Of a DNA stretch of 64,000 bases, positions 2,607 to 42,078 are shown in pieces. A program made the position numbers and the translations under genes. The DNA lies in the NCBI GenBank assembly GCA_000146465.1, contig CP001945.1. One strand, written 5' to 3'. The stretch's first letter is position 1. Each line of letters opens with the position of its first letter. The notes beneath the pieces are model-generated. The model was not told where the DNA came from. It saw nothing but the letters and a program-made list of their open reading frames with translations, and did no database searches.

Positions 2607-4664
2607 ATGGAGAAAGAGAACATTCCGGACAGGACAACTGCCTCAAACATGGGGGATGCCTCCATCTCCCCGAGTCTTCTTGAGCCCTCAGAGCCGGGGT
2701 GCTGTCCCTTCGATGTGTTCACACCCGAGGCCCTAGTAAGCAGATTCAAAACATATGACGACTGCACTGAAGATATCATCAAGCTTATCAGATCGGTCCA
2801 TGTCTGCCAGAACAAAATAAAGAAGCTGTGCCGTGTCTTCGACTCACTGTCCAACTATGACACCGGCTTGATAGTTAACCTTACAAGGGATGGAAATCGA
2901 ATGCTGAGATATGTGTCGACGTATCTGATGCTCAATAAGATAAAGCAGTGGGTTATAGATGGAAGGGGATTTGAAGTGGTGGAGGCTATGTACGATGAGG
3001 TGTTTCTGGTTAGGTTCCGAGATGTGGATTTCAATATAAGGGCTGCTTGTGTTGAGTTTATGTGTGAGTGGATTATCTCTGCCCCTGGGATCTTCAATCT
3101 GCCCTGCTACCTGAAGTACATTGGATGGGCTCTCAGTGACAAAAACGATAGTGTTAGGAGAAAAGGGATAAGCTCATGCACGAGACTTGTACGGAAGAAG
3201 ATCAATGTCCAGGGGTTTGTATCTCGTTTTAAGAGTAGGATAATAGAGCTATCTCTATACGATAGGAGTCCTGCATTAAGGGACGAAGGAAAAGCACTCT
3301 GTATGGAGCTGTATATTGGAGGGATGGTCTCTAAGGATGATGTATACAAAGTTCTAAGGTCCATGAACGAAGGAGATAAGAAAGGATTGATGAGCTCTAC
3401 CATCAGAAAGATACTTGGAACAGAGGAACCAAGTGATAGAAGTCTCTTGGAGAATCACGAGGGCTTGCATGAACTACTTTCAAACACGTCTTTATTTATT
3501 TGCTCATGCATTCCTCACAGTGGAAAAGATGTTGAAGGATTCATAGACTTTATTTTGGACTTCCTACGCACAAAAAACTCTTGCTGCCAATCAAAGAGCC
3601 TGTGTTACCTAAGAATCCTCGGAGTTCTCTCTGGCTCGGGGGTGGATGTTGAGAAATATCACAGAATCTTTGAGATAGTCAAGGACAGTAGAGAAAACAC
3701 GGCACAAACTGTGGAAGCTATCTCAAAAGTTGATCCAGAGGTGTTTAGGAGGCATCCAGATGCTACCAATAGGCTTCTGGAGGCAATGAAAGATCTTCTG
3801 GCCCAGTACAAATGTGAAGAGATGTTTTCAAGGTTTGTACATCTCTTGAAGAAGCTTGAGAAGGACTTTCCAGCCTTTGTTCACCGAGTTGTGGAATCAC
3901 TTAAATCCTCCTGTGTAGAGTTTGTGCATTGCGCAATCAAGTCGTTTGACATATCGGAAAGCGTGGAAAACAACTTTCCATCAGAGATCAAATGCTATGC
4001 TGCACTATGGAAGATAATGTCCGAGGACTACGAAAGAGTCAACGGATATGAGTTCAAGAAAATCGGCAATCTTTCTGTACTTTGTGACTTTCTCCTTTTC
4101 TTTAGAGAGAAATGCATTGAATTTGGAGTAGTGAACCGGAGTGTTGAAAGAGCTTCTGACCAGGGGGAATGTTTCAAGATAATGTATGATCGTCTCTCTG
4201 TTCTTATTCATTCACAAGCAGAAGATGTTTTTACAGACCAAAAAGGATGCATTTCGTTGTTCAAGCTTGTTGATGGAGGCCTTTTTGTTGACTACTCGAG
4301 TATTATATTCAGGACTTGTAACCTAGAGCTGATCTCAGAGTTTCTGGGCAAGAGTAAGTCAAAGATGAACCTTGTCTCTGGATACTTCAGATATCTTATG
4401 GATGTGGAAGAAAAGGATGTAGACAAGAAGGTCGGAAGACTAGTGGGTTCCAGATGCAGCATGGCAAAGAGAGGGCTTGATACGGAGAAGGTTGTTTTCC
4501 GAGGTATGAAGGAGCTAATCGAACTAAGAAAGGTGTTTCTGTACGATACAGTTCTCATTTACTTTGTTTCTTCCCTAACAGCCAACGAATGCATAATCAT
4601 AGAACAGGGTCTGGAAAAGTCAAGACTTAAGGCATCTTTGCTCCGAAGGATCAGAGAGGGTTGA
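2607..4664 (+). CDS. SCC3: cohesin subunit SCC3/IRR1 (stromal antigen, STAG-like)
   Basis: Stromalin conserved domain-like block VRFRDVDFNIRAACVEFMCEWIISAPGIFNLPCYLKYIGWALSDKNDSVRRKGI, compared with SA/Scc3 RYRDVxPxIRAxCIxEIGxWM...YLKYxGWxLxDxxxxVRL. Long helical-repeat protein of 685 aa with an ATG at 2607. Confidence 0.5.
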   Translation: MEKENIPDRTTASNMGDASISPSLLEPSEPGCCPFDVFTPEALVSRFKTYDDCTEDIIKLIRSVHVCQNKIKKLCRVFDSLSNYDTGLIVNLTRDGNRMLRYVSTYLMLNKIKQWVIDGRGFEVVEAMYDEVFLVRFRDVDFNIRAACVEFMCEWIISAPGIFNLPCYLKYIGWALSDKNDSVRRKGISSCTRLVRKKINVQGFVSRFKSRIIELSLYDRSPALRDEGKALCMELYIGGMVSKDDVYKVLRSMNEGDKKGLMSSTIRKILGTEEPSDRSLLENHEGLHELLSNTSLFICSCIPHSGKDVEGFIDFILDFLRTKNSCCQSKSLCYLRILGVLSGSGVDVEKYHRIFEIVKDSRENTAQTVEAISKVDPEVFRRHPDATNRLLEAMKDLLAQYKCEEMFSRFVHLLKKLEKDFPAFVHRVVESLKSSCVEFVHCAIKSFDISESVENNFPSEIKCYAALWKIMSEDYERVNGYEFKKIGNLSVLCDFLLFFREKCIEFGVVNRSVERASDQGECFKIMYDRLSVLIHSQAEDVFTDQKGCISLFKLVDGGLFVDYSSIIFRTCNLELISEFLGKSKSKMNLVSGYFRYLMDVEEKDVDKKVGRLVGSRCSMAKRGLDTEKVVFRGMKELIELRKVFLYDTVLIYFVSSLTANECIIIEQGLEKSRLKASLLRRIREG

Positions 4665-10914: not shown

Positions 10915-10996
10915 ATGGGACCTGGGGGATTCGAACCCCCGAACGTTACCGTATTCGATCTTGAGTCGAACGCCTTAGACCACTCGGCCAAAGTCC
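10915..10996 (-). tRNA. tRNA-Leu (anticodon CAA), no intron
   Basis: The reverse complement reads GGGACTTTGGCCGAGTGGTCTAAGGCGTTCGACTCAAGATCGAATACGGTAACGTTCGGGGGTTCGAATCCCCCAGGTCCCA. It has a 7-bp acceptor stem, a GCCGAGTGGTCTAAGGC D-arm and an anticodon loop CTCAAGA. It also has a long variable arm, a GGGGG/TTCGAAT/CCCCC T-arm and discriminator A, followed on the minus strand by TTTT (plus-strand 10911-10914). Confidence 0.85.
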
Positions 10997-11089
10997 CTCA
11001 GGTCGGATTCAGGACATGCCGAAAGCACTCCGGAAGACAGTACACAGCCATCCAGGTTCTTTAAATAAGTCTTAATAAAGGCCCTTTGG

Positions 11090-12444: not shown

Positions 12445-15400
12445 ATGGGACTGGAGAGAGTTGAAGTAGAGAACTTCAAGTCGTATGCGGGATTTCATAT
12501 TATTGGGCCTTTTGATAGGTTCACTTGCATTGTCGGGCCAAATGGATCGGGGAAGAGCAATATAATGGATGCTGTGACATTTTGCCTTGGGATTGGATCC
12601 AAGCACCTCCGAGCTAACAATATTAGGAGCCTGATCAACGGTGGATCCAGCCATGCCAGTGTGGCACTTCACATCGAAGGGTCTGGAGAGAGGAGAGTCT
12701 TTAAGAGGAGGATTAGTAGTGAAGGGCGAAGCCAGTACTTTGTGGATTCTGAGAGTGTTGGGTATGAGAGGTTCAGAGAGGTTGTTGAGGGGATGAATCT
12801 GCTGGTTGATGCCCGAAACTTCCTGGTGTTCCAAGGGGATGTCAATGCGATAGGAAACATGATGCCGATGGAGCTTACAAGGGTATTTGAAGAAGCAAGT
12901 GGAAGCCTGAAGCTTAAGGAGGCTTATGAGGAGAAGCAGAGGGCACAGGCAAAGGCTGTGAGTGAATGTGCGTCGCTGTTTGAGGAGAAGAAAGAGGTGA
13001 TGAGCCGGATGAAGGAGGCTGAAGAGGTTCGAGAGCAAGAAGGAGAGTTTCGAAAGCTAGTGGAGAGGAAGCATAAGGTGCAGAGAGATATAGTGCTGTA
13101 TGAACTTATGGAGAAGAGGAATAAGAAGAAAGACATAAGCAATGAAATGTTGAGTCTTGGGCAGGAAAGTAGAAAGATGGAGGAGTTGGTATGCAAAAAG
13201 GAGAAGGAGGTTGAAAAGCATAGAGGAAGGATAAGTGAGATCAGGAGAAGGTATTTTGAGGCCGATGCCCTAGTGTCGAAACAGAAGGAAGTGGTGGCGG
13301 AAAGAAGAGCATGGAAGTCCTTAGGGGAGTCAGAGAGGAGTAAGAGAAGAGTACGGATTGCGGAGATTGAAATGGAAATCAGGGCGGGACAGGAAATGAT
13401 GGGGGGAAAGAAGAGAGAGATTGAGAGGAGAAGGAGAGATCTGGCAGGAGTTGCCGAAGGGTATTCTGAGCTATGGAGGGAAGAGGAAGAAAGAAAAGAA
13501 CGGCTGAACGGAGTTAAGGAGAAAGAAGAGGAGATTGAAAAGAGAGAAAAGGAATTTCTTCGGATGTGTGGAGAGGAGAGGGAGAGATTGAATACTCTGG
13601 AGATGGAAGAATTTCCTCGGCAAATGATGAAAGATGATTGCATAAGGAAGATTGGCAACTTGAAGGAGAGAAGCGAAGAATTGGAAAGTATGATCAAGGA
13701 AAAGAAGATGATCCGGGGAAATACTGGAGTGAAGATAGATGCGCTTGAAAGATCTTCGGAAGAGTTGGGGAGGAAGATATTACATCACGAGGAAAAGTAC
13801 TCAAGGCTTATCTCTGAGGAGAAGGAAAAAAATGAGGAGCTTTCGTGGGTGCTTGGAGAGATTCTGCGCATCAAAGGGAAGAGAAGAATTGATGGACGGC
13901 ATTCTGTGATTGCAGGGGCTGTGGAGACTCTTAGGGAGATGTTTCCTGGGGTGTATGGAAGGGTTGTTGATCTGATTAAGCCCACCCGAGACAAATACGA
14001 GATTGCATTGTCGGTGCTTTTGGGAGGGCATGATCAATCTGTTGTTGTTGACACAGAGGTGACAGCGATGTCGTGTATCAACTTTATAAAGGAGAAGAAG
14101 CTGTGCAAGATGACGTTTGTTCCTCTGCACAGCATCCGAGACCAGGGAGATGGTAGAGATGTGGAGAATGCTGTGGAGAAGTATGGAGAAGGGGTAAGAA
14201 GAGCATCGGATGCGGTTAAATACGATGGGAAGTATAAGAAGATAGTATCTTTTCTATTTCGAGAAAAGCTAATAGCAGATAGCATGGAGATAGCCAAGGA
14301 TATTTGCTATGGAAGAAAAATCAAGGTGAGTGTGTGTACGTTGGATGGGATCTACATATACGGAGGAGGATATTTGATAAGCGGAGGAGGAGAAGGACGA
14401 AACAAGTTCCAGGAGGATGAGCTGGATGAACTAGTGAAGAAAAGGATGAGGATTTTAGACGAGCTTCGGCGAATCCAAGATGGCAAGAATGAGCTTTCTC
14501 ATGTTGAGATATGTAGAGAAAGAATGGAGGTTTGGAAAAAGAGCAAGGAGTTGGAAATGGAGACTTTGAGGGAGCTGGACTCGTGCATTGAGGATCTGGA
14601 GCTCCGGATTGGAGAAAATAAAAGGATGTTGGAAGAAACAGAGGAGTGTTTGAAACGAACAGAAGAGGAGATGGGGCAGTCTGAAGTTTATCTAAAGGAG
14701 CTTCGAAAGAAAATCGAAGAAGTGGAATCTTCTGTGTTTTGCGGAATATTTCCAAATGCCTACTTCGGAAGCTTTGAAGAGTACAAGAAGGCTCGGGAGA
14801 GTGAAGCTTTTGCACTGAAAAGTATGGAGTATGAGGGAATAAAGGCAAAGACTGAGCTTAGGATTGAGATGCTGGAACGGGAGGTAAGGGACCTAGAAGA
14901 GGAAACAGAAAGACTTCGAAGGGAAGTAGAAGGATTGAGTAAAGATCCCTGCCGCGATGAAATAGACATCGATGCATTGGATTCGGAGCTCATGATTCTT
15001 GAAGAGGGAAGAAGAAAAAATCTTGAGGCTTTTAAAAAGGCTCGGGACGAGTTTAAAGAGATCAATGAGGAGTTCAAAGAGTTGGTTGACCGTAGAAATG
15101 AACTTGATCAGCAGATAATCCACAGCACATCTGCTCGAGAGCGTCTTGAAGAAGAGATTAAGGACACCCTGAGCTTTGCAGTTCTCGAGGAGATTGATCT
15201 CCCTTGTGCAAAGAGGATGTCGATGGGGGAGATTTCTGTGGATGAGATAGACTTCTCTGGACTGGAAGGGAGTGTCTCGAAACTTCGAAAGGAGCTGGAG
15301 GAAATCAACCAAAAGATAAGCAGCCAGGCACCTGTGATAAGAATGGAGGAAAGAGATGGAGATAATGCTAGATACATGAGGATAAGCGCAGAATACGAAA

Positions 15401-15924
15401 AGCGAAAGGCAATGGCAATTGCTGCCAAGAATGAGTTCAACGAGGTGAAGAAAAGAAGAACACACTTGTTCATGGAGTGTTTTGAGAAGGTCAATAAGGA
15501 GATATCAAGGATATACAAGCTTCTTACAATGACCGAGACAGGTGAAGGAAATGCATACCTGGTCCTTGAAAACACAGCTGAACCCTTCAGAGAAGGCATT
15601 AGATTCCATCTGATGCCTCCAAACAAGAGATTTCGAGAAGTTAGACTGCTTTCAGGAGGAGAAAAGACTATGGCTGCTTTGTCCCTCCTCTTCTCTCTCC
15701 ATGCGTACAGGCCTGCTCCCTTCTATTTATTTGACGAGGTGGACTCTGCCTTGGACAAGGCTAATGTGTCGAAGATTGTGTCCTTCATAGTTTCGTGTAA
15801 CGCCCAGTTTATCCTCATCACCCTAAAGCCATCTCTATTCCAACATAGCGATGGCCTGGTTGGAGTGTACAAGGATCCTCGCGAAGGTGTGAGTAAGGTT
15901 CTTACCTATAGATTGGGAGACTGA
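12445..15924 (+). CDS. SMC1: structural maintenance of chromosomes protein, SMC1-like cohesin ATPase
   Basis: N-terminal Walker A FTCIVGPNGSGKSNIMDAVTFCLG. Long E/K/R coiled coils and a hinge region (GRVVDLIKP...ALSVLLGGHDQSVVVD). C-terminal signature LSGGEKTMAALSLLFSLHAYRPAPFYLFDEVDSALD, which matches SMC1-type Walker B/D-loop. Confidence 0.75.
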   Translation: MGLERVEVENFKSYAGFHIIGPFDRFTCIVGPNGSGKSNIMDAVTFCLGIGSKHLRANNIRSLINGGSSHASVALHIEGSGERRVFKRRISSEGRSQYFVDSESVGYERFREVVEGMNLLVDARNFLVFQGDVNAIGNMMPMELTRVFEEASGSLKLKEAYEEKQRAQAKAVSECASLFEEKKEVMSRMKEAEEVREQEGEFRKLVERKHKVQRDIVLYELMEKRNKKKDISNEMLSLGQESRKMEELVCKKEKEVEKHRGRISEIRRRYFEADALVSKQKEVVAERRAWKSLGESERSKRRVRIAEIEMEIRAGQEMMGGKKREIERRRRDLAGVAEGYSELWREEEERKERLNGVKEKEEEIEKREKEFLRMCGEERERLNTLEMEEFPRQMMKDDCIRKIGNLKERSEELESMIKEKKMIRGNTGVKIDALERSSEELGRKILHHEEKYSRLISEEKEKNEELSWVLGEILRIKGKRRIDGRHSVIAGAVETLREMFPGVYGRVVDLIKPTRDKYEIALSVLLGGHDQSVVVDTEVTAMSCINFIKEKKLCKMTFVPLHSIRDQGDGRDVENAVEKYGEGVRRASDAVKYDGKYKKIVSFLFREKLIADSMEIAKDICYGRKIKVSVCTLDGIYIYGGGYLISGGGEGRNKFQEDELDELVKKRMRILDELRRIQDGKNELSHVEICRERMEVWKKSKELEMETLRELDSCIEDLELRIGENKRMLEETEECLKRTEEEMGQSEVYLKELRKKIEEVESSVFCGIFPNAYFGSFEEYKKARESEAFALKSMEYEGIKAKTELRIEMLEREVRDLEEETERLRREVEGLSKDPCRDEIDIDALDSELMILEEGRRKNLEAFKKARDEFKEINEEFKELVDRRNELDQQIIHSTSARERLEEEIKDTLSFAVLEEIDLPCAKRMSMGEISVDEIDFSGLEGSVSKLRKELEEINQKISSQAPVIRMEERDGDNARYMRISAEYEKRKAMAIAAKNEFNEVKKRRTHLFMECFEKVNKEISRIYKLLTMTETGEGNAYLVLENTAEPFREGIRFHLMPPNKRFREVRLLSGGEKTMAALSLLFSLHAYRPAPFYLFDEVDSALDKANVSKIVSFIVSCNAQFILITLKPSLFQHSDGLVGVYKDPREGVSKVLTYRLGD

Positions 15925-31350: not shown

Positions 31351-33522
31351 ATGAGGATATTGAATGTTGCCGAGAAACCTTCTGTTGCAAGATCGATATC
31401 CTCGGTCTTATCGAAGGATCTAAGTGTCAGGAGAGGGCTTCATCAGTACTGTCCAAACATCCAGTTTGACCATGGCAATCAGATGGTCTTCACAAGTGTT
31501 CTGGGACATGTGCTCTCGAGCGACTTTGAGAACAAGAGCCGGTGGGATGAAGTAGATCCAGAGACACTGTTTACAGAAAGGATTGTCAAGTATGTACAGC
31601 CGGAGTTTATAAAGGTTAAGGAAAATATAGAAAGAGAGGCGTTGAAATGCGACATGGTTGTGATTTGGACTGACTGTGATAGAGAAGGGGAAAACATTGG
31701 AAGGCAGATAAGAGACATTGTCCTTGGGGTGAAGAAGGTTGAAGTGAAGCGGGCAAGATTTTCTGGGATCACTCTCCGGGACATAGAGGGAGCATTGGGA
31801 AACCTAGGGGAAATAAACGAAGCAGAGGCAGAGGCGGTCGAAGTACGCATGGAATTGGATCTTAGAATAGGATCGGCGTTTACTAGGCTGCAGACCTTGT
31901 CACTGGGCAGGACGATACAGGAGAAAAGGGTACTAAGCTTTGGGCCGTGCCAGGTACCTACATTGGGATTTGTGGTTGAGAGGGCAAGGGAAAGGGAGAG
32001 CTTTGTCCCTGAGATGTTCTGGACTCTAATGTTTAAGACTAAAAGTAAGAAACTTGGAGATGAATTTACGTGGAGAAGAGGATCTGTCTTTGATAAGAAC
32101 TGTGTTATATGTTTCCATAGAAGCTTGTCTGGAGAAAGTGCTAGGATAGTGTTAAAAGAAGTGAGAGAAAGAACCAAATACAAGCCGCTTCCTCTTAGAA
32201 CTGTTGAGCTTCAGAAGAAATGTTCATCGTACTTCAAGCTAAGTGGACACAAGGTGATGGAGATTGCAGAGGGGCTGTACAACAAAGGATATATAAGCTA
32301 TCCCAGGACAGAGACAGATGCATTCGATAGGAAGTTTGACTTCAAGTACATATTGGGTAAGTTATGTAAGGATTCGAAGGTAGGTGAGCATGCTGAGAAG
32401 TTGATTGGGGGGTTTGATTATCCGCGGAATGGAAGAAACAATGACATGGCACATTCTCCAATATATCCACTAAAAGAAGGGACAGGACTTTCAGGAAAGG
32501 ATAGAGATATCTATGACTTTATTTGTAGAAGGTTTCTTGGATGTATATCAAAGGATGCCAAGGGCCTTGAGACACGGTATGAACTGAAGATTGGATCTGA
32601 GATGTTTGATCTGAAGGGGATAAGGGTGGTCGAAAAGAACTATCTGGAGGTGTATTACTATGATAAGTGGGATGATAAAGAAGTCAGTGACTTTCAGATG
32701 GGAGAGATGGTTTCGGGGGATCTTTGTATCTCGGAGGGCAAGACAACACCTCCAAACTATCTTACCGAGGCCGAACTGATAAGCCTGATGGATAAGAATG
32801 GAATAGGAACAGATGCAACGATACATGAGCATATTCAAAAGATTCAAGAGAGAGGATATGCAATCAAGGTTGGAGAAGAAATAAGGCCTCTGGAGCTTGG
32901 GGCAGCTCTTATTGGAGGATATGAAAGGTTTGGATTGAATGTTGGCAAGCCTGAGCTTCGGAAGAGCCTAGAAGGTAATCTCAAGAAGATATCGGAGGGC
33001 CGGATGAGTGGAAGAGAAGTAGTGAAGGAGGGAATTATAGCCTATAGAGACATATATGCCCTCCTTAAAAGAAATATCGAGGAATTTGTCTGTATTCTTA
33101 GACAGGGTATTGAAAATGATACAAAGCGGCTGGGAGTGGAGAAGAGAAAAAAGGCGGAAAGGGCAGAACAAGGAAAGACAAAAGCAGAGGGTTTCAAGGG
33201 TCTCAACCCAAAGAAAGCTCTGAACAAAGAAGGAGAAAAGAAAAGAGTGGAATGTGATTGTAAAGACGAAGCCAAGGTGCTGAAGGTAAAGAAGGGAGAC
33301 AATACTGGAAAGGAGTTCTATTGTTGTGGAAAGACAGCAAAAAGATGTTATTTTTTCCAGTGGTGTGACAAGGAGGAAACCAAGAGAGACGAGGAGCTGA
33401 AATGCTTCTGCGGGTTTGAGCCCCAATTGCTTGTAGCAAACACAGAAAACAATAAAGGAAGGAAGTTCTTCAAGTGCAAGAAAGCATACAAGCCATGTAA
33501 GTTCTTCCAATGGGAGGAATGA
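31351..33522 (+). CDS. TOP3: DNA topoisomerase III (type IA) with C-terminal GRF-type zinc fingers
   Basis: Toprim MRILNVAEKPSVARSIS...VFTSVLGHVL. Active-site GYISYPRTETD. C-terminal C4 repeats CCGKTAKRCYFFQW and FFKCKKAYKPCKFFQWEE. Confidence 0.9.
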   Translation: MRILNVAEKPSVARSISSVLSKDLSVRRGLHQYCPNIQFDHGNQMVFTSVLGHVLSSDFENKSRWDEVDPETLFTERIVKYVQPEFIKVKENIEREALKCDMVVIWTDCDREGENIGRQIRDIVLGVKKVEVKRARFSGITLRDIEGALGNLGEINEAEAEAVEVRMELDLRIGSAFTRLQTLSLGRTIQEKRVLSFGPCQVPTLGFVVERARERESFVPEMFWTLMFKTKSKKLGDEFTWRRGSVFDKNCVICFHRSLSGESARIVLKEVRERTKYKPLPLRTVELQKKCSSYFKLSGHKVMEIAEGLYNKGYISYPRTETDAFDRKFDFKYILGKLCKDSKVGEHAEKLIGGFDYPRNGRNNDMAHSPIYPLKEGTGLSGKDRDIYDFICRRFLGCISKDAKGLETRYELKIGSEMFDLKGIRVVEKNYLEVYYYDKWDDKEVSDFQMGEMVSGDLCISEGKTTPPNYLTEAELISLMDKNGIGTDATIHEHIQKIQERGYAIKVGEEIRPLELGAALIGGYERFGLNVGKPELRKSLEGNLKKISEGRMSGREVVKEGIIAYRDIYALLKRNIEEFVCILRQGIENDTKRLGVEKRKKAERAEQGKTKAEGFKGLNPKKALNKEGEKKRVECDCKDEAKVLKVKKGDNTGKEFYCCGKTAKRCYFFQWCDKEETKRDEELKCFCGFEPQLLVANTENNKGRKFFKCKKAYKPCKFFQWEE

Positions 33523-33614: not shown

Positions 33615-33962
33615 ATGGGAATGGTTGAAGAGAGCAGTGTGGCAGAACCAGTTCCACAGGCAAAGCCTCAACAAGAAATAGAGAGAAAAGGGTCTTTTCC
33701 AGAGAATGAAGTATCCAAGGACATGCCGGTGGTCAAGTTGAAGGACATTATGATGTATGCAGAAAACATGGAAGGGATGGAAAACAAGAAGTTGATTCCC
33801 TATGTAGTCTACTTGGACGAGCAGTTCAAGGAAATTGTCCAGAGAAGGAGAAAGGATGCAAAGGTAGTTCTTATACTCTACATAACTATTATGTCTATCT
33901 TTGTTATTGGGCTAATTGTATGTGGAGTAAAGCTCTTTGGGTATTTGATGGGATGGGAGTGA
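33615..33962 (+). CDS. small tail-anchored protein, 115 aa; possible SNARE-like
   Basis: Helical cytosolic segment followed by RRRKDAKVVLILYITIMSIFVIGLIVCGVKLFGY. The SNARE assignment is speculative. Confidence 0.3.
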   Translation: MGMVEESSVAEPVPQAKPQQEIERKGSFPENEVSKDMPVVKLKDIMMYAENMEGMENKKLIPYVVYLDEQFKEIVQRRRKDAKVVLILYITIMSIFVIGLIVCGVKLFGYLMGWE

Positions 33963-35162: not shown

Positions 35163-36584
35163 ATGGCTACAAAGATTGAGAACGATGTCAAACCACGTTT
35201 GAATGTTTGTTTTATCGGACACGTAGACTCTGGAAAGAGCACTACGGTGGGAATGCTTGCCTATCAGTTAGGAGCGGTTGACAAGAGAGAAATGGAGAAG
35301 TATGAGAAGGAGGCAGCTCTCAACAACAAGGAGTCGTTCTATCTTGCATACTTAACCGACAAGACCGAGGCAGAAAGAAAGAGAGGAATTACAATCACAA
35401 CCACTCTTATTGCTCTCTCTACAGAGAAGTTCGATATCAACGTTCTTGATTGCCCCGGGCACAAGGACTTTGTGAAGAACATGGTGGCAGGAGCATCGCA
35501 GGCAGATGTGGCAGTAGTGATTGTTCCAGCATCTGGATTTGAGTCCTGTGTTGGGGTTGGAGGGATGTTGAAGACACACATTATGATTTCAGGGATTCTC
35601 GGATGCGAGAAGCTGATTATATGTGTCAACAAGATGGACGAGATTGCCGAGGACAAGAGGAGGATGGAGAAGTTCAAGGAGGTATCTGATGAGATGCGTA
35701 GAATTGTCAAGAGGTGCCACAGAGATTCAAACCCTATTGTCCTGCCTATATCTGCGTACAAGGGAATCAACCTGACGAAGAAGGGAGAACACTTCAACTG
35801 GTTCAGTGGATGGAAAGAGAAGGAAGGATCGGAGGTGATACACACTCTTGAGGAGGCTCTGGATTACCAGAAGGTACCTGAGAGACACAACGACAAGCCT
35901 TTAAGAATGCCGATCACCAAAGTTTGCTCTATTGCAGGAATTGGTAAGATTTTCACAGGGCGTGTGGAGTACGGAACCATCACACCAAATCTTAAGATTA
36001 CAATTCAGCCGGCAGGAGTGGTGGGAGAGACCAGGTCTGTGGAGATCCACAACAAGCCAAGGCCCATGATTCCATGTGGAGAGAACTGTGGAGTTGCTCT
36101 CAAGGGAGGAGTTGTTGGGGAAATCGACAAAGTGGATGCAGGACACGTGATTTCGGCCAACGATGAGAACAAGGCCATAGCATATCCTGGGGCAAAGATC
36201 AGAACAATTGTTGTTGCCAGGCCAAAGGGATTGTCGGTAGGATATACTCCACAGATCAACTTTGGAAACTGCCACTCTCCAGGAAGGATTGCCAAGATTA
36301 TTTCAAGAGTAGTTGGTGGAAAGGAAGTACAGGAGAACCTTGAAAACATTGGAAATGGACAGACGTTTATTGGAGTTGTTGTTTTCCAGAAGCCGTTGGT
36401 TGTCGATAGGATGGACAAGTTCCAGAACCTGGCAAAGTTTGCACTTATGGACAGTAACGGGGTTGTGGGAATTGGAAATGTCATGGAGCCTCTTACCAAA
36501 GACCAGCTTCTCAAGGAGTACGGGATTGACATAAATGAAGATCCCAAGGCAGCAAAAAAGGCAGCCGGTAAGAAGAAAGCATAA
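35163..36584 (+). CDS. TEF1: translation elongation factor 1-alpha (divergent)
   Basis: IGHVDSGKST, DCPGHKDF, NKMD G-motifs. No N-terminal extension, which argues against eRF3/HBS1. The lysine-rich C-terminus KAAKKAAGKKKA is typical of EF-1alpha. Confidence 0.7.
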   Translation: MATKIENDVKPRLNVCFIGHVDSGKSTTVGMLAYQLGAVDKREMEKYEKEAALNNKESFYLAYLTDKTEAERKRGITITTTLIALSTEKFDINVLDCPGHKDFVKNMVAGASQADVAVVIVPASGFESCVGVGGMLKTHIMISGILGCEKLIICVNKMDEIAEDKRRMEKFKEVSDEMRRIVKRCHRDSNPIVLPISAYKGINLTKKGEHFNWFSGWKEKEGSEVIHTLEEALDYQKVPERHNDKPLRMPITKVCSIAGIGKIFTGRVEYGTITPNLKITIQPAGVVGETRSVEIHNKPRPMIPCGENCGVALKGGVVGEIDKVDAGHVISANDENKAIAYPGAKIRTIVVARPKGLSVGYTPQINFGNCHSPGRIAKIISRVVGGKEVQENLENIGNGQTFIGVVVFQKPLVVDRMDKFQNLAKFALMDSNGVVGIGNVMEPLTKDQLLKEYGIDINEDPKAAKKAAGKKKA

Positions 36585-36636
36585 GTAATCTTTCTTCCAA
36601 AAGAAGTATCTTTATTAAACTTCTTTTATTAATTTC

Positions 36637-37527
36637 TTATATTCTTTTTAGTGCTTTTGTAAGGAAATGGTTCATCTCCCGTCGGCCTTTGCTAAGGAAA
36701 GCCTCCATTTCAACCTTCTTGCCTGTCTTCTTAAGAAGCAACGGGTCATTGGTAAAACATTCGAACTCCATAAGTCTGTCAACCATCTTCAGGTCGTATT
36801 TATTCAGGCCTGCAAGGCCGTCCTGATGGATCCTCTTGTCTAGGATGTCTTCTGCACAGACGCCAATCCGCACAATAGTTTCAACTCTTGTCTCTGGAGC
36901 CTCTCTACTCCCATACTTATAGACACAAAAGATGTGAATACCAAAGGGATCAAAGTCAAAGAGTCCTCCAATGGCTGTCTTGTGTTCTATCATCTTCAAC
37001 AATAGCATAGTGTTCTTGCATGGATATCCTCTCCCACACACAAGTAGCACACCTTCAAGATATCTTTCCCTTTCAATTCCAGATGCTATTCTTTGTAATA
37101 TTGTATCTTTTTCAACAACCAAAACCCTCTCGTAACTGCAGAACACCTCAACTATGCCCTCCATGTCTGGAATAAGCTGTGGGTTGTTCCTACATGAGGA
37201 CATCTCTATTATGTCTGGGCCCTTAACAAAAGCTAGCTTTCCGATAAAGGTTCCTTTGAGAGTATTTCTTATTCTAAGATCGCTTTTTGAAACTCGAAGC
37301 TCTGAGGCGATGGTAGATATCAACCTTTTGACAGCAGTCTGACTTTTGAATATATTCACAGCCATGTAAAAGATTTCTCTTTCATTTCTGGTGATTCCTA
37401 GTTCTTGCATCTCCATGATTATCTCATGGAGCCTTATCCTCATTACAAGAGTTCTCGACTTCAGCTCTGTCAGGAGCTTTAGTGCATTGTGCTTTAGCGA
37501 TGTGGATATCTCAGAAGAAAAGGCCAT
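36637..37527 (-). CDS. SPO11: SPO11 / topoisomerase VI subunit A-like meiotic DSB transesterase (compact, 296 aa)
   Basis: Catalytic-Tyr motif REIFYM (compared with RDIFY/RDIYY). LVVEKDTILQRI (metal-binding Glu, compared with VEKDAVF). Toprim LLVCGRGYPCKNTMLLL and DFDPFG (DxD, compared with DADPHG). KYGS. Confidence 0.8.
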   Translation of the reverse strand: MAFSSEISTSLKHNALKLLTELKSRTLVMRIRLHEIIMEMQELGITRNEREIFYMAVNIFKSQTAVKRLISTIASELRVSKSDLRIRNTLKGTFIGKLAFVKGPDIIEMSSCRNNPQLIPDMEGIVEVFCSYERVLVVEKDTILQRIASGIERERYLEGVLLVCGRGYPCKNTMLLLKMIEHKTAIGGLFDFDPFGIHIFCVYKYGSREAPETRVETIVRIGVCAEDILDKRIHQDGLAGLNKYDLKMVDRLMEFECFTNDPLLLKKTGKKVEMEAFLSKGRREMNHFLTKALKRI

Positions 37528-37575
37528 TCTATCGCCAAAGCATAAACCCAGAATAACGAATCCCTGGGATATTGC

Positions 37576-38082
37576 ATGATATATACCGCAGAGATATACG
37601 AAAGAGTTAGGAAGCTCTTAGGAGATTTGTGCATGGTGCAGACCGGGGACAATCCAGTGGCATACAAGGTGTCAAAGTACAAATCAAAGAAGCCTGTGTA
37701 TCTTGTTGAAGGAAATGGAGGAGAAATGTATCTGATGGGGGATCACGTCTTCGAGCTTGAGCGTAGTGGGTTTGATGTAGGGGTTTCAAAGGAGAAAGAG
37801 GTATTGGTTATGCTTTTCAAGTTCAGCACTAGAAGTCTAGAGGGAGGCAGAAGAGTTGCAAGAGAATCTCCAGAGGAAGGGCAATTTATAGAGGTGGATG
37901 TAGGTCCGGTGACATGTGATGGAAGAAGAATGGGAACCCTGATAGCATCAAGTATTCCACAGGGTTTATGTGCATTGTCTAGTGTGCTAAAAAGATTTAT
38001 TCGGATTGATACCAACGGGTATTCAGAAGGAGGATTTGAAAAGTTGCTTGTGAGGGTTCTTAGTTCCAACAGGGTCCTATGA
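37576..38082 (+). CDS. hypothetical protein, 168 aa, divergently paired with SPO11 (48-bp spacer)
   Basis: ATG at 37576, preceded by TCCCTGGG. No recognisable domain. Confidence 0.4.
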   Translation: MIYTAEIYERVRKLLGDLCMVQTGDNPVAYKVSKYKSKKPVYLVEGNGGEMYLMGDHVFELERSGFDVGVSKEKEVLVMLFKFSTRSLEGGRRVARESPEEGQFIEVDVGPVTCDGRRMGTLIASSIPQGLCALSSVLKRFIRIDTNGYSEGGFEKLLVRVLSSNRVL

Positions 38083-38254: not shown

Positions 38255-39223
38255 ATGCTTCTACTTCTTACAATTGTTGGAATAGTGGTCTGCAGGGAAA
38301 ATGCAGTGATTCTGATTCTCTGTAGGAACAGCGACAAGAATGGCATAACAGAAACGATAAAGAATTTCGAAGAGGTGTTCAATAGAAACTTCGGATATCC
38401 TTATGTATTTCTGAACGATGAGGAGTTTACCGAGGACTTCAAGAAAGCTATAAAGGATGTTACATCTAATAGTGTTGAGTTTGGAAGACTCGAGCCCGAG
38501 GAGTGGGAGATTCCAAAGTGGATAGATATGGAGAAGGCAAAGGAGGAAATGAAGAAAATGGAAGACAGGAAAATCATCTATGGAGGGTCTCTATCATACA
38601 GGAAGATGTGCAGGTTCTTTTCTGGATTCTTCTACAGGAACAAGCTTGTCCAGAAGTATGACTATTATTGGAGGATAGAGCCAGATGTAAAGTTCCTGTG
38701 CCAGATAGAGTATGATCCGTTCACATATCTTCGGGAGAACAACAAACAGTATGGGTTTGTGATATCCTTGGTTGAGTTTATGGAGACGATTCCCAGTCTG
38801 TTTGGAGAGGTGATAAAGTTTGCAACACATAACCTGAACTTGATCAAAAAGGCCAATGGAAATAGATTCATACTAAACAAGGACGGGTCATACAACGGAT
38901 GTCATTTTTGGTCCAACTTTGAAATAGCAAACTTTGGATTCTTTAGAAATGAAACATACCAGAAGTACTTTGATTGGTTAGACAAGGCTGGGGGGTTTTT
39001 CTACGAAAGATGGGGTGATGCGCCTGTGCACAGTATTGCAGCATCTCTCTTCCTGGATAAGGATCAGATCCACTTCTTCAGCGACATTGGGTATGAGCAT
39101 CCTCCATTCCAGCATTGTCCAAGAGAGGCGTCCATGAGATCGAAATGCAAGTGCAGTATTTCGAACTCGTTAGACTTTTCTCCAAATTCGTGTCTGGGCT
39201 TGTACATAAAGTCTCTTTTGTGA
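38255..39223 (+). CDS. alpha-1,2-mannosyltransferase, KTR/KRE2 family (GT15), type II membrane protein
   Basis: N-terminal signal anchor [92 protein letters not shown] and [17 protein letters not shown] are all hallmark GT15 blocks. Confidence 0.9.
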
Positions 39224-39303
39224 ATGAAGAATGCCTGGAAGTATATTCGATAATAATAAATTGGTACGACGGATATTTTGGTTTATTTTTGACCCGATAC
39301 GAG

Positions 39304-42078
39304 ATGGATTCTGAAAAGGAAGCTTTGAAGGAAAGGAAGAAAATGGAGAAGGAAGAGAAGAAGAGGCAGAAGCTGGAGAAATTCCTGGCAAAGAAAACAC
39401 AAGAAATGAATGTTTCCAAGCCAAGGAAGGAGTACAAGGGAGATGGCTATGACCCGCTAGGGATTGAAGGGAAGTGGTACGAGTTCTGGGAGAACAACGA
39501 GCTTTTCAAGCCTATAGAGGGAAAAGAGAAATATGTAATTCCGATTCCTCCGCCAAATGTCACAGGAAACCTTCATATAGGACATGCAATGATGGTTTCA
39601 ATTCAGGATACTTTGTGTAGATACAAGAGGATGTGCGGGTATGAGGTTTTGTATATTCCTGGGACAGACCATGCAGGAATAGCCACACAGAATGTTGTAT
39701 TGAAGCAATTGGAAAGAGAAGGAGTTGTCTCTGACAGAGAAGGGTTTCTTAAGAAGGCCTGGGAGTGGAAGGATAAGCATGGATCAAGAATATATGAGCA
39801 ATTTAAGAGATTAGGGACGAGTGTAGACTTCAGCAGGGAAAGATTTACCCTAGATCCAGGGATGAACGAAGCTGTTGTTGATGCGTTTGTAAAGCTCTAT
39901 GAAAGAGGCCTTATATATCGAGAGCTGAAAATTGTGAACTGGTGTGCCAAGCTGTCGACAACCATAAGTGACTTGGAGGTTAATCACGAAGAGGTGATGG
40001 CCAGCACAGATCTACAAGTAGATGGAGGAAAGTATGAGTTTGGGGTAATTTATCATTTTAAGTATCCCATGACAATAGATAAGGAATTTTCAGGAGATTA
40101 TCTTTCGCTACCGGCAATTGAAGTGGCAACAACAAGACCGGAAACGATTCTTGGAGACACGGCGATATGTGTGAATGGAAAGGACGAAAGATTTGGAGCC
40201 AGAGGAATAAAGGAGACTTTTGGGGATGTTCCTGAAGGAAGCAAGCTCTATTGTGTAAATCCGTTGACCAGTGAGGTGATTCCTGTTGTCTTTGACGACT
40301 ATGCAGATATGAGCTTTGGAACTGGAGTGGTGAAAATAACACCTGCACATGATGCAAATGACTTCGATGTATCGAGGAGACATGGACTTCCTTGCAAGAT
40401 TGTGTTTGATGAAGAAAACAGGGTAATCATTGAGGGAGAGTTCAAGGGGCTAAAGAGATTTGAGGCAAGAAAAGCTGTTATTTCAAAGCTTACAGACATT
40501 GGCTTGTTTGTTGGAAAGAAGGAGTATCCTCAGGTGATTCCAAGATGTTCCCGATCTAATGACATTATAGAGCCTATTGTCAAGAGTCAATGGTGGATGG
40601 ACTGTAAGGAAATGGCAAATAAGGCTATTGAGGCAGTTAAAGAAGGAAGAATAAGAATACTACCTGAAGGGGCAGAAAGGCGATGGTATAAATGGCTTGA
40701 GAATATCAGGGACTGGTGTCTATCGAGGCAACTGTGGTGGGGGCATCGAATACCTGCATACAGAATGCCTTCTGGAAAATGGTATGTTGGAAGAAGCAAG
40801 GAAGAAGCATTTTTGAAGATGAAGAATGAGTGTCCTGAGGATGGATGTAGTATTGATGAGTTTGAGCAGGACGAGGATGTTCTAGACACATGGTTTTCTT
40901 CGGGCCTATGGCCGTTTGCCATTCTAGGATGGCCCAAAGAGACAGAAGACCTTCAAAAGTACTATCCTAGCACCTTGCTTGAAACAGGCAGCGACATTCT
41001 CTTCTTCTGGGTGGCGAGAATGGTGATGCTTGGAATTGAACTGACCGGAAAAGAGCCTTTCAGCCAAGTGTTTCTCCATGGGATAGTAAGAGATGCACAT
41101 GGAAGGAAGATGAGCAAAAGCCTTGGGAATGTCATTGACCCGATTTTTGTGATTGATGGATGTCCTCTTTCAAAGCTGATTTCGACAATGAGAAGCGGGA
41201 ATCTCGATGAGAGGGAGATGAAGAGGGCAGAAGAAGTCCTACGAAAGGATTTCCCAAACGGAATACCAAGGTGCGGGGCAGATGCTCTTAGATTTACTTT
41301 ACTTTCCTACACCTCTGGAATGAAGGATATCAACCTTGATGTACTGAGGGTGGAAGGATATCGAAGGTTTTGCAACAAAATATGGAATGCTCATAGATTT
41401 GTGAAGGCAGCAGTAGATGAGGCCATTGAAGAAAGCCTTAGAGGGTCCACTTGTAAGAAGAAATACGAGAAGTATATTCTTCCGGCTGATAAGCTACAGA
41501 TTCGTTCTGGAGAAGGACCCGTTGAATGGATTCTTAAAAAAAGGAACGAGTTAATAGAAATAAGCCAGAGAATGATTGATTCATTCAACTTCATGGGAGC
41601 CACACAAGCAATCCATCAGTTTTTTATTTACGATCTGTGTGATGTCTTCATAGAGGTTGTTAAGAAAAACAAGAGCGAAAGATACATAGGGGTACTATTA
41701 AGCGTGTTTATCGATTCGATGAAGATACTCCATCCATTTATGCCATTTATCACAGAAGAGGTGTTTTCTGATTATTTCGATAGTTCTATTTCCACTTCAC
41801 CATATCCTAGGACAGATGGGTCTAACCATGAAAACAAGTTTTCTGGGACACTTCAAATTATAAGGCATGTAAGGGCAAAGGCAGAGTCAAAGGGATGGCC
41901 TAGGGTTGCAGTAGGGATTGCCCCAGGAGAAGATGTTGACCTTGCAGACCTGGAGTTTGTCCGTCTGCTTTGCAAAAAAATTATCGAATTTAAGGTAGTA
42001 GAACATTCAGAAAGCTCAGAAAGCCATCTGTATGAGAAGGTAGGGGATTCTGGAGTATTTGTGAGCCAAGCAGATTGA
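39304..42078 (+). CDS. VAS1: valyl-tRNA synthetase with lysine-rich N-terminal appendage
   Basis: [14 protein letters not shown] (HIGH). KMSKSLGN (KMSKS). Editing and anticodon-binding regions are conserved. The ORF track starts at a TTG at 39115 inside the KTR gene. The ATG at 39304 ([13 protein letters not shown]) is preceded by CCC. Confidence 0.9.

Follow-up and report, generated by a model that had tools for sequence, protein, structure and literature searches.

Spo11, the DNA-cleaving protein that in yeast belongs to a core complex with Rec102 and Rec104, and Med20, a subunit of the head module of Mediator, are the closest described counterparts of two genes that face away from each other in a 64-kb stretch of DNA (the window) from the microsporidian parasite Encephalitozoon intestinalis. 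In the yeast core complex, Rec102/Rec104 are contacted by Spo11 residues 1-25, which form the N-terminal extension, by G95/L98, and by a helix pair with L60 and L112 (PMC11746154). Malik et al. 2008 (PMC2488364) already include Encephalitozoon SPO11 in their inventory of meiotic genes. As for Mediator, Bourbon 2008 reported the head-module subunits Med6, Med8, Med11, Med17, Med18, Med20, and Med22 in E. cuniculi, with E-values of 4e-20 and 9e-22 against yeast for the apparent Med18 and Med20, respectively (PMC2475620). Because these head-module subunits are found, a Med20 is to be expected in that species.

The window is a compact eukaryotic sequence, intron-poor and with a GC content of 39-46%. 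The head-to-head pair consists of a 296-aa open reading frame (ORF) on the minus strand and a 168-aa ORF on the plus strand, the start codons of which point apart across 48 bp, and the coordinates given for it in the first-pass annotation, which had been made from the letters of the sequence, were reproduced. That annotation had taken the pair for a SPO11 with the look of a competent enzyme and a possible accessory partner under a shared promoter; the former part is supported, and the latter is not. Very likely, these are two functionally unrelated genes that stand back to back through extreme genome compactness and a gene order conserved in the clade, and the pairing most likely reflects the compact genome, not a new meiotic partnership.

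An intact SPO11 gene

Judged by its sequence, the 296-aa gene is the intact SPO11 orthologue of E. intestinalis, and the identification made in the first-pass annotation is correct, though already known. GenBank proteins of E. intestinalis ATCC 50506 match both products of the locus at 100% identity, the longer one being named 'DNA topoisomerase VI subunit A [E. intestinalis ATCC 50506]', and the E. cuniculi orthologue, ECU04_1110, is listed in Swiss-Prot (Q8SVS9) as "Probable meiosis-specific protein SPO11 homolog". Two Pfam domains score above their gathering scores, TP6A_N (E = 1.7e-11) and TOP6A-Spo11_Toprim (PF21180; E = 4.9e-19), and a phmmer search of PDB sequences retrieves S. shibatae Top6A (2zbk_A, 5e-9) and S. 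cerevisiae Spo11 (8urq_A, 3e-7). A literature search found no paper mentioning ECU04_1110 or ECU04_1120, the latter being the E. cuniculi orthologue of the 168-aa gene, and a 2024 paper on structure-based annotation of microsporidia mentions neither Mediator nor Spo11.

The motifs REIFY (aa 50-54), VVEKD (aa 137-141), DFDPFG (aa 191-196), and KYGS (aa 204-207) lie where they had been placed from the sequence. In the phmmer alignment to 8urq_A, R50 and Y54 correspond to yeast R131 and Y135, E139 to E233, and D191/D193 to D288/D290; we take yeast Y135 to be the catalytic tyrosine, R131 its arginine, and E233 and D288/D290 the Toprim metal ligands. Both yeast Spo11 and S. shibatae Top6A share with the E. 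intestinalis protein, residue for residue, the winged-helix Tyr and Arg and the Toprim Glu and DxD. These residues are also constant within the group. An alignment of 11 Spo11 sequences (268-358 aa), including the query and comprising E. romaleae, E. hellem, E. cuniculi, Ordospora pajunii, O. colligata, and others (four further assemblies and one sequence recovered by tblastn), has R50, Y54, E139, D191, and D193 unchanged throughout, and the catalytic Tyr, Glu, and DxD are accordingly intact, as had been proposed. Spo11 of E. intestinalis has the make-up of a minimal Top6A-type enzyme, with Tyr54 and Arg50 on a winged-helix domain and Glu139, Asp191, and Asp193 as putative Mg2+ ligands on a Toprim domain, and by analogy with Spo11 elsewhere it would cleave DNA as a dimer via a 5'-phosphotyrosyl intermediate.

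The protein starts late in comparison with its yeast counterpart. Native yeast Spo11 is 398 aa long, and query residue 22 falls opposite yeast residue 103, leaving the N-terminus ~81 aa shorter than that of yeast; a short N-terminus, by about 100 aa relative to fungal Spo11, had been noticed before. The frame 5' of the SPO11 ATG is open for 30 codons up to a stop and has no ATG, and most Encephalitozoon and Ordospora orthologues are 296-306 aa long with matching N-termini, the shorter exceptions being P0011 (268 aa) and the truncated P0013 (227 aa). With no upstream ATG and a start position shared by 10 orthologues, the brevity of the N-terminus is genuine. P0014 (358 aa), a microsporidian Spo11 that is more distant, extends ~60 residues further at its N-terminus.

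Set against yeast Spo11, the E. intestinalis protein lacks equivalents of both the N-terminal extension (25 residues) and the G95/L98 segment, and the only clearly retained part of this region is the second helix of the pair, which corresponds to residues 103-120 (with equivalents of F103, L105, and L112). Because segments that bind Rec102/Rec104 in yeast have been lost, Spo11 may act here without a TopoVIB-like partner. That the Spo11 of Encephalitozoon and Ordospora has been stripped to its core, possibly to the point of being partner-free, and that the gene is possibly being lost in parts of the clade, is a rather unlikely reading as a whole; if true, these genera would offer a natural series for a minimal meiotic break machine and for the timing of the abandonment of sex.

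The neighbouring gene as a probable divergent Med20

With good confidence, the 168-aa neighbour is read as a Mediator Med20 that has diverged and become shorter. In GenBank and UniProt, it is labelled 'UDP-Gal beta GlcNAc beta-1,4-galactosyltransferase-like', a name carried over from the ECU04_1120 record. The label would call for a catalytic domain of glycosyltransferase family 7, but no glycosyltransferase Pfam match is found in the 11 family members, none occurs among the fold matches, and the label can be rejected. The neighbour had been called uncharacterised, which is right insofar as single-sequence and profile searches of Pfam and of PDB sequences returned nothing meaningful, the weak matches to ELL (E 1.5) and transferrin receptor (E 0.32) being at chance level, and wrong insofar as the protein is deposited in GenBank, albeit under an unsupported name.

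The evidence for Med20 comes mainly from the predicted fold. A word-indexed search retrieved four Encephalitozoon proteins as the only relatives, and AlphaFold2 (AF2) run on a 4-sequence, Encephalitozoon-only alignment gave a predicted local distance difference test (pLDDT) value of 33. An exhaustive profile search of 1.84 billion representatives defined the family as seven 50%-identity clusters with members of 166-188 aa; scans of JGI metagenomes with the Med20-like alignment, like those with the Spo11 alignment, yielded no confirmed relatives. With distant family members added (the 11-sequence alignment A4), AF2 produced a confident model with a pLDDT of 82 and a predicted template-modelling score (pTM) of 0.79, in which loop 89-102 alone falls below pLDDT 50. 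Searched with this model, Foldseek returned a mixture of Med20 chains and chains of triphosphate-tunnel (TTM) enzymes at E ~1e-3, and the top query template-modelling (TM) scores belong to Med20 chains, 0.55-0.64 versus 0.44-0.45 for TTM enzymes. The predicted structure of the neighbour has, in other words, the three-dimensional fold of Med20. Relative to the Med20 chains of yeast (Srb2, 2hzm), human (MED20/TRFP, 7emf), and S. pombe (5n9j), the protein has 168 rather than 210-212 aa, and identity in the structural alignments is 9-11%.

Sequence-level support for the Med20 identity is suggestive only. When ten members of the family are aligned by MAFFT with the Med20 proteins of yeast and human, both of which were confirmed to match PDB chains at 100% identity, Y35 and G110, invariant in the family, fall in columns that are invariant over all 12 sequences, and the MY motif and the W-x8-D-x-G-x4-DG motif are colinear with yeast and human Med20. 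Counted on the sequences, the Tyr-to-Tyr spacing is 17 residues in the 168-aa protein, 16 in yeast Med20, and 18 in human Med20. The weak segments that hhalign finds, the M-Y-x-M motif with human Med20 and the W...D-x-G...DG motif with yeast Med20, are the same ones as in the MAFFT alignment.

The neighbour would be a size-reduced microsporidian orthologue of the Mediator head subunit Med20 (Srb2/TRFP), pairing with Med18 and the Med8 C-terminus and contributing to the assembly of the RNA polymerase II pre-initiation complex, so that its role would lie in general transcription, not in meiotic break formation. In terms of annotation, the gain is that a gene recorded as "galactosyltransferase-like" or "hypothetical" in several Encephalitozoon records is most likely the Mediator Med20; a transcription machinery that is among the smallest in eukaryotes thereby comes closer to having a full head module.

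Several points weigh against the assignment. It rests on a predicted, not a solved, structure; the first-ranked Foldseek match by E-value is a TTM enzyme; Pfam Med20 matches none of the 11 family members; the family profile retrieves no Med20 from PDB sequences; and hhalign of A4 with single Med20 sequences is not significant (P 0.17 for human, P 0.29 for yeast). In addition, the E. cuniculi Med20 of Bourbon is presumably ECU04_1120 (NP_584796/CAD25300) but might be another protein, and the proteome may hold a further Med20 candidate.

Two other explanations of the neighbour were weighed. The protein could have kept a Med20-like fold while having left Mediator for a lineage-specific role that the fold does not reveal, a reading in line with a sequence similarity to Med20 below significance, a length ~40 aa short of yeast and human Med20, and the confinement of the family to so few clusters in the exhaustive search. 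Nevertheless, shortening and divergence are general among microsporidian proteins, and the three colinear motifs common to the family and to yeast and human Med20 suggest orthology rather than convergence, which makes a departure from Mediator decidedly unlikely. Still smaller is the chance that the neighbour is a TTM/CYTH enzyme or a derivative of one, for example, a small triphosphatase, rather than a subunit of Mediator: despite the mixed Foldseek matches, the family lacks the ExExK motif, its N-terminus reading M-[ILF]-Y-T-x-E-x-Y-E, it has no invariant Lys or Arg, and the protein resembles TTM structures less than Med20.

Conservation of the gene order

At least six genomes have kept the divergent pair, a persistence that counts somewhat against regarding the two genes as unrelated. 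It is kept in O. pajunii (contig L001), O. colligata (L010), and the relatives L004, L008, and L009. Each of these contigs carries the whole block, namely TOP3, a small ORF, an actin-like gene, a gene for an EF-1-alpha-type GTPase, SPO11, the neighbour, a GT15 mannosyltransferase gene, and a valyl-tRNA synthetase (ValRS) gene. Because the whole block is kept each time, the adjacency of SPO11 and the neighbour is no more conserved than its surroundings.

The Med20-like gene is, moreover, kept independently of an adjacent SPO11, a distribution expected of a housekeeping gene. Contig L003 (Logan SRR21023573) retains TOP3, the actin-like gene, the GTPase, an intact Med20-like gene, GT15, and ValRS without SPO11; the stop codon of the GTPase gene is followed after only 75 bp by the ATG of the Med20-like gene (L003:5974-6054, syntenic with window positions 36584-37576), and tblastn found no trace of Spo11 within 12.5 kb. 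Six SRR21023573 contigs carry the Med20-like protein. SPO11 may have been lost or relocated in the lineage of L003. L006 and L007, two metagenomic contigs that are more distant, carry the homologue beside the gene for ribosomal protein S9 and have no Spo11, an absence that counts for less than it might, as these contigs are only ~4 kb long.

An apparent absence of Spo11 from L004 and L005 is of another kind. Here, the minus strand gives an unbroken match by tblastn, and the absence is rejected as a gene-calling artefact; through a wrong-strand automatic gene call, this Spo11 is missing from protein databases.

In O. colligata (GCA_004324945.1, L010:3001-3909), a single in-frame stop stands at codon 228 of SPO11, in place of an Arg that in O. 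pajunii belongs to a nearly invariant R-I-G motif. Past the stop, the sequence is conserved in frame to the normal end, overall identity to O. pajunii being 79%, and the 227-aa Spo11 in the database is the truncated product. Either SPO11 has recently acquired a nonsense mutation here, or the stop is an error of sequencing. Together with the absence from L003, it provides a small lead on whether these parasites still have sex.

The order of the genes also speaks for the idea of a lineage-specific Spo11 accessory factor, an analogue of Rec102/Rec104/TopoVIB-like proteins, Rec114, Mei4, or Ski8 that would be co-expressed with SPO11 from a bidirectional promoter. The head-to-head arrangement has a spacer of 36-53 bp in E. 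intestinalis, O. pajunii, O. colligata, L004, and L008, and is present in L009 as well (a gap of 104 bp as called); a short conserved box lies in the spacer, and the partners of Spo11 diverge quickly and are not easily detected by sequence. However, none of the known partners (TopoVIB-like/Rec102, Rec104, Ski8, Rec114, Mei4) is on the fold lists of the neighbour, which resembles them in neither fold nor sequence and is like them only in its proximity to SPO11 and in its small size (Rec104 has ~180 aa). A partner role is extremely improbable. The first-pass annotation had itself named homology to an unrelated housekeeping protein as a finding that would speak against its proposal, and, the gene being a likely housekeeping Med20, the proposal is largely refuted. 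For meiosis research, the locus is of little consequence, as Encephalitozoon SPO11 has been catalogued since 2001-2008 and its neighbour is not a new partner.

The spacer and possible promoter elements

Where genes are packed at about one per kb, the fact that two of them stand head to head ~50 bp apart is no evidence of functional coupling. The window contains 12 divergent pairs, with spacers of 35, 47, 48, 49, 86 and so on up to 384 bp (≤49 bp in 4 of the 12), and because they span this range, the 48-bp spacer is unremarkable. Genes of E. cuniculi generally have 5' untranslated regions of <7 nt and CCC-type signals just 5' of the ATG, and their transcription often overruns (PMC2803860).

Two short elements are found in the spacer. 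A GCATAAA box in its middle (37540-37546; as GCATAAA(C/T)C, 37540-37549) recurs in the five orthologous spacers compared, which come from Encephalitozoon, Ordospora, and related contigs, and its distance is ~13-20 nt to the start codon of SPO11 and ~30 nt to that of the Med20-like gene; a CCC motif is located upstream of the plus-strand ATG. The box may be a TATA-like core promoter element, and both the box and the CCC motif may serve as core promoter elements for one gene or the other. Given the conserved GCATAAA box and the persistence of the pair in six or more genomes, some co-regulation of SPO11 and its neighbour may exist, which would speak against two unrelated genes. On balance, we infer that SPO11 and the Med20-like gene are regulated independently.

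Other genes of the window

SMC1, a gene for an SCC3/stromalin-domain protein, and TOP3 are present in the window, as had been pointed out (Table 1). They do not make up a meiotic gene cluster: all three are genes of general chromosome maintenance, scattered among those for myosin, SRP54, a CCT-type chaperonin, and other housekeeping proteins.

Table 1. Coordinates of the features discussed, in the window unless a contig is named
Feature	Position	Strand	Basis or remark
SPO11 / TopoVI-A orthologue, coding sequence, 296 aa	36637..37527	-	ORF, Pfam, PDB matches, GenBank identity
Winged-helix TP6A_N domain (PF04406), aa 29-86, with Arg50 and Tyr54 (codon 37366-37368)	37270..37443	-	Pfam, yeast alignment
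Toprim domain, aa 135-283, with Glu139 (37111-37113), Asp191 (36955-36957), Asp193 (36949-36951)	36679..37125	-	Pfam, yeast alignment
Divergent intergenic spacer, 48 bp	37528..37575	.	Sequence
Probable Mediator head-module Med20, coding sequence, 168 aa	37576..38082	+	Orthologue of E. cuniculi ECU04_1120
Missed Spo11	L004:5164-5991 and L005:958-1785	-	46% identical to window Spo11; called ORF 166 aa, wrong strand
SCC3/stromalin-domain protein	2607-4664		
tRNA gene	10916-10997	-	Rfam, 60.7 bits
SMC1	12445-15924		6yuf_A, 1.4e-142
TOP3	31351-33522		
Small ORF	33615-33962	+	
Syntenic small ORFs of relatives	L001:8795-9262, L003:2882-3223, L004:2335-2658, L008:7559-7909, L009:7704-8051		
GT15 mannosyltransferase ORF	38255-39223		
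ValRS ORF, TTG-started	39115-42078		

Downstream of the Med20-like gene, the GT15 mannosyltransferase ORF overlaps the TTG-started ValRS ORF by ~110 bp; the true ValRS start is probably a downstream ATG, which would remove the overlap. The tRNA gene, the sole Rfam match in the window, sits in a 239-bp gap between a Mtr4/Ski2-like helicase gene and the next ORF. Finally, the small ORF between TOP3 and the actin-related gene belongs to a further unannotated family, outside Pfam, and is conserved in all relatives, with products of 107-155 aa.
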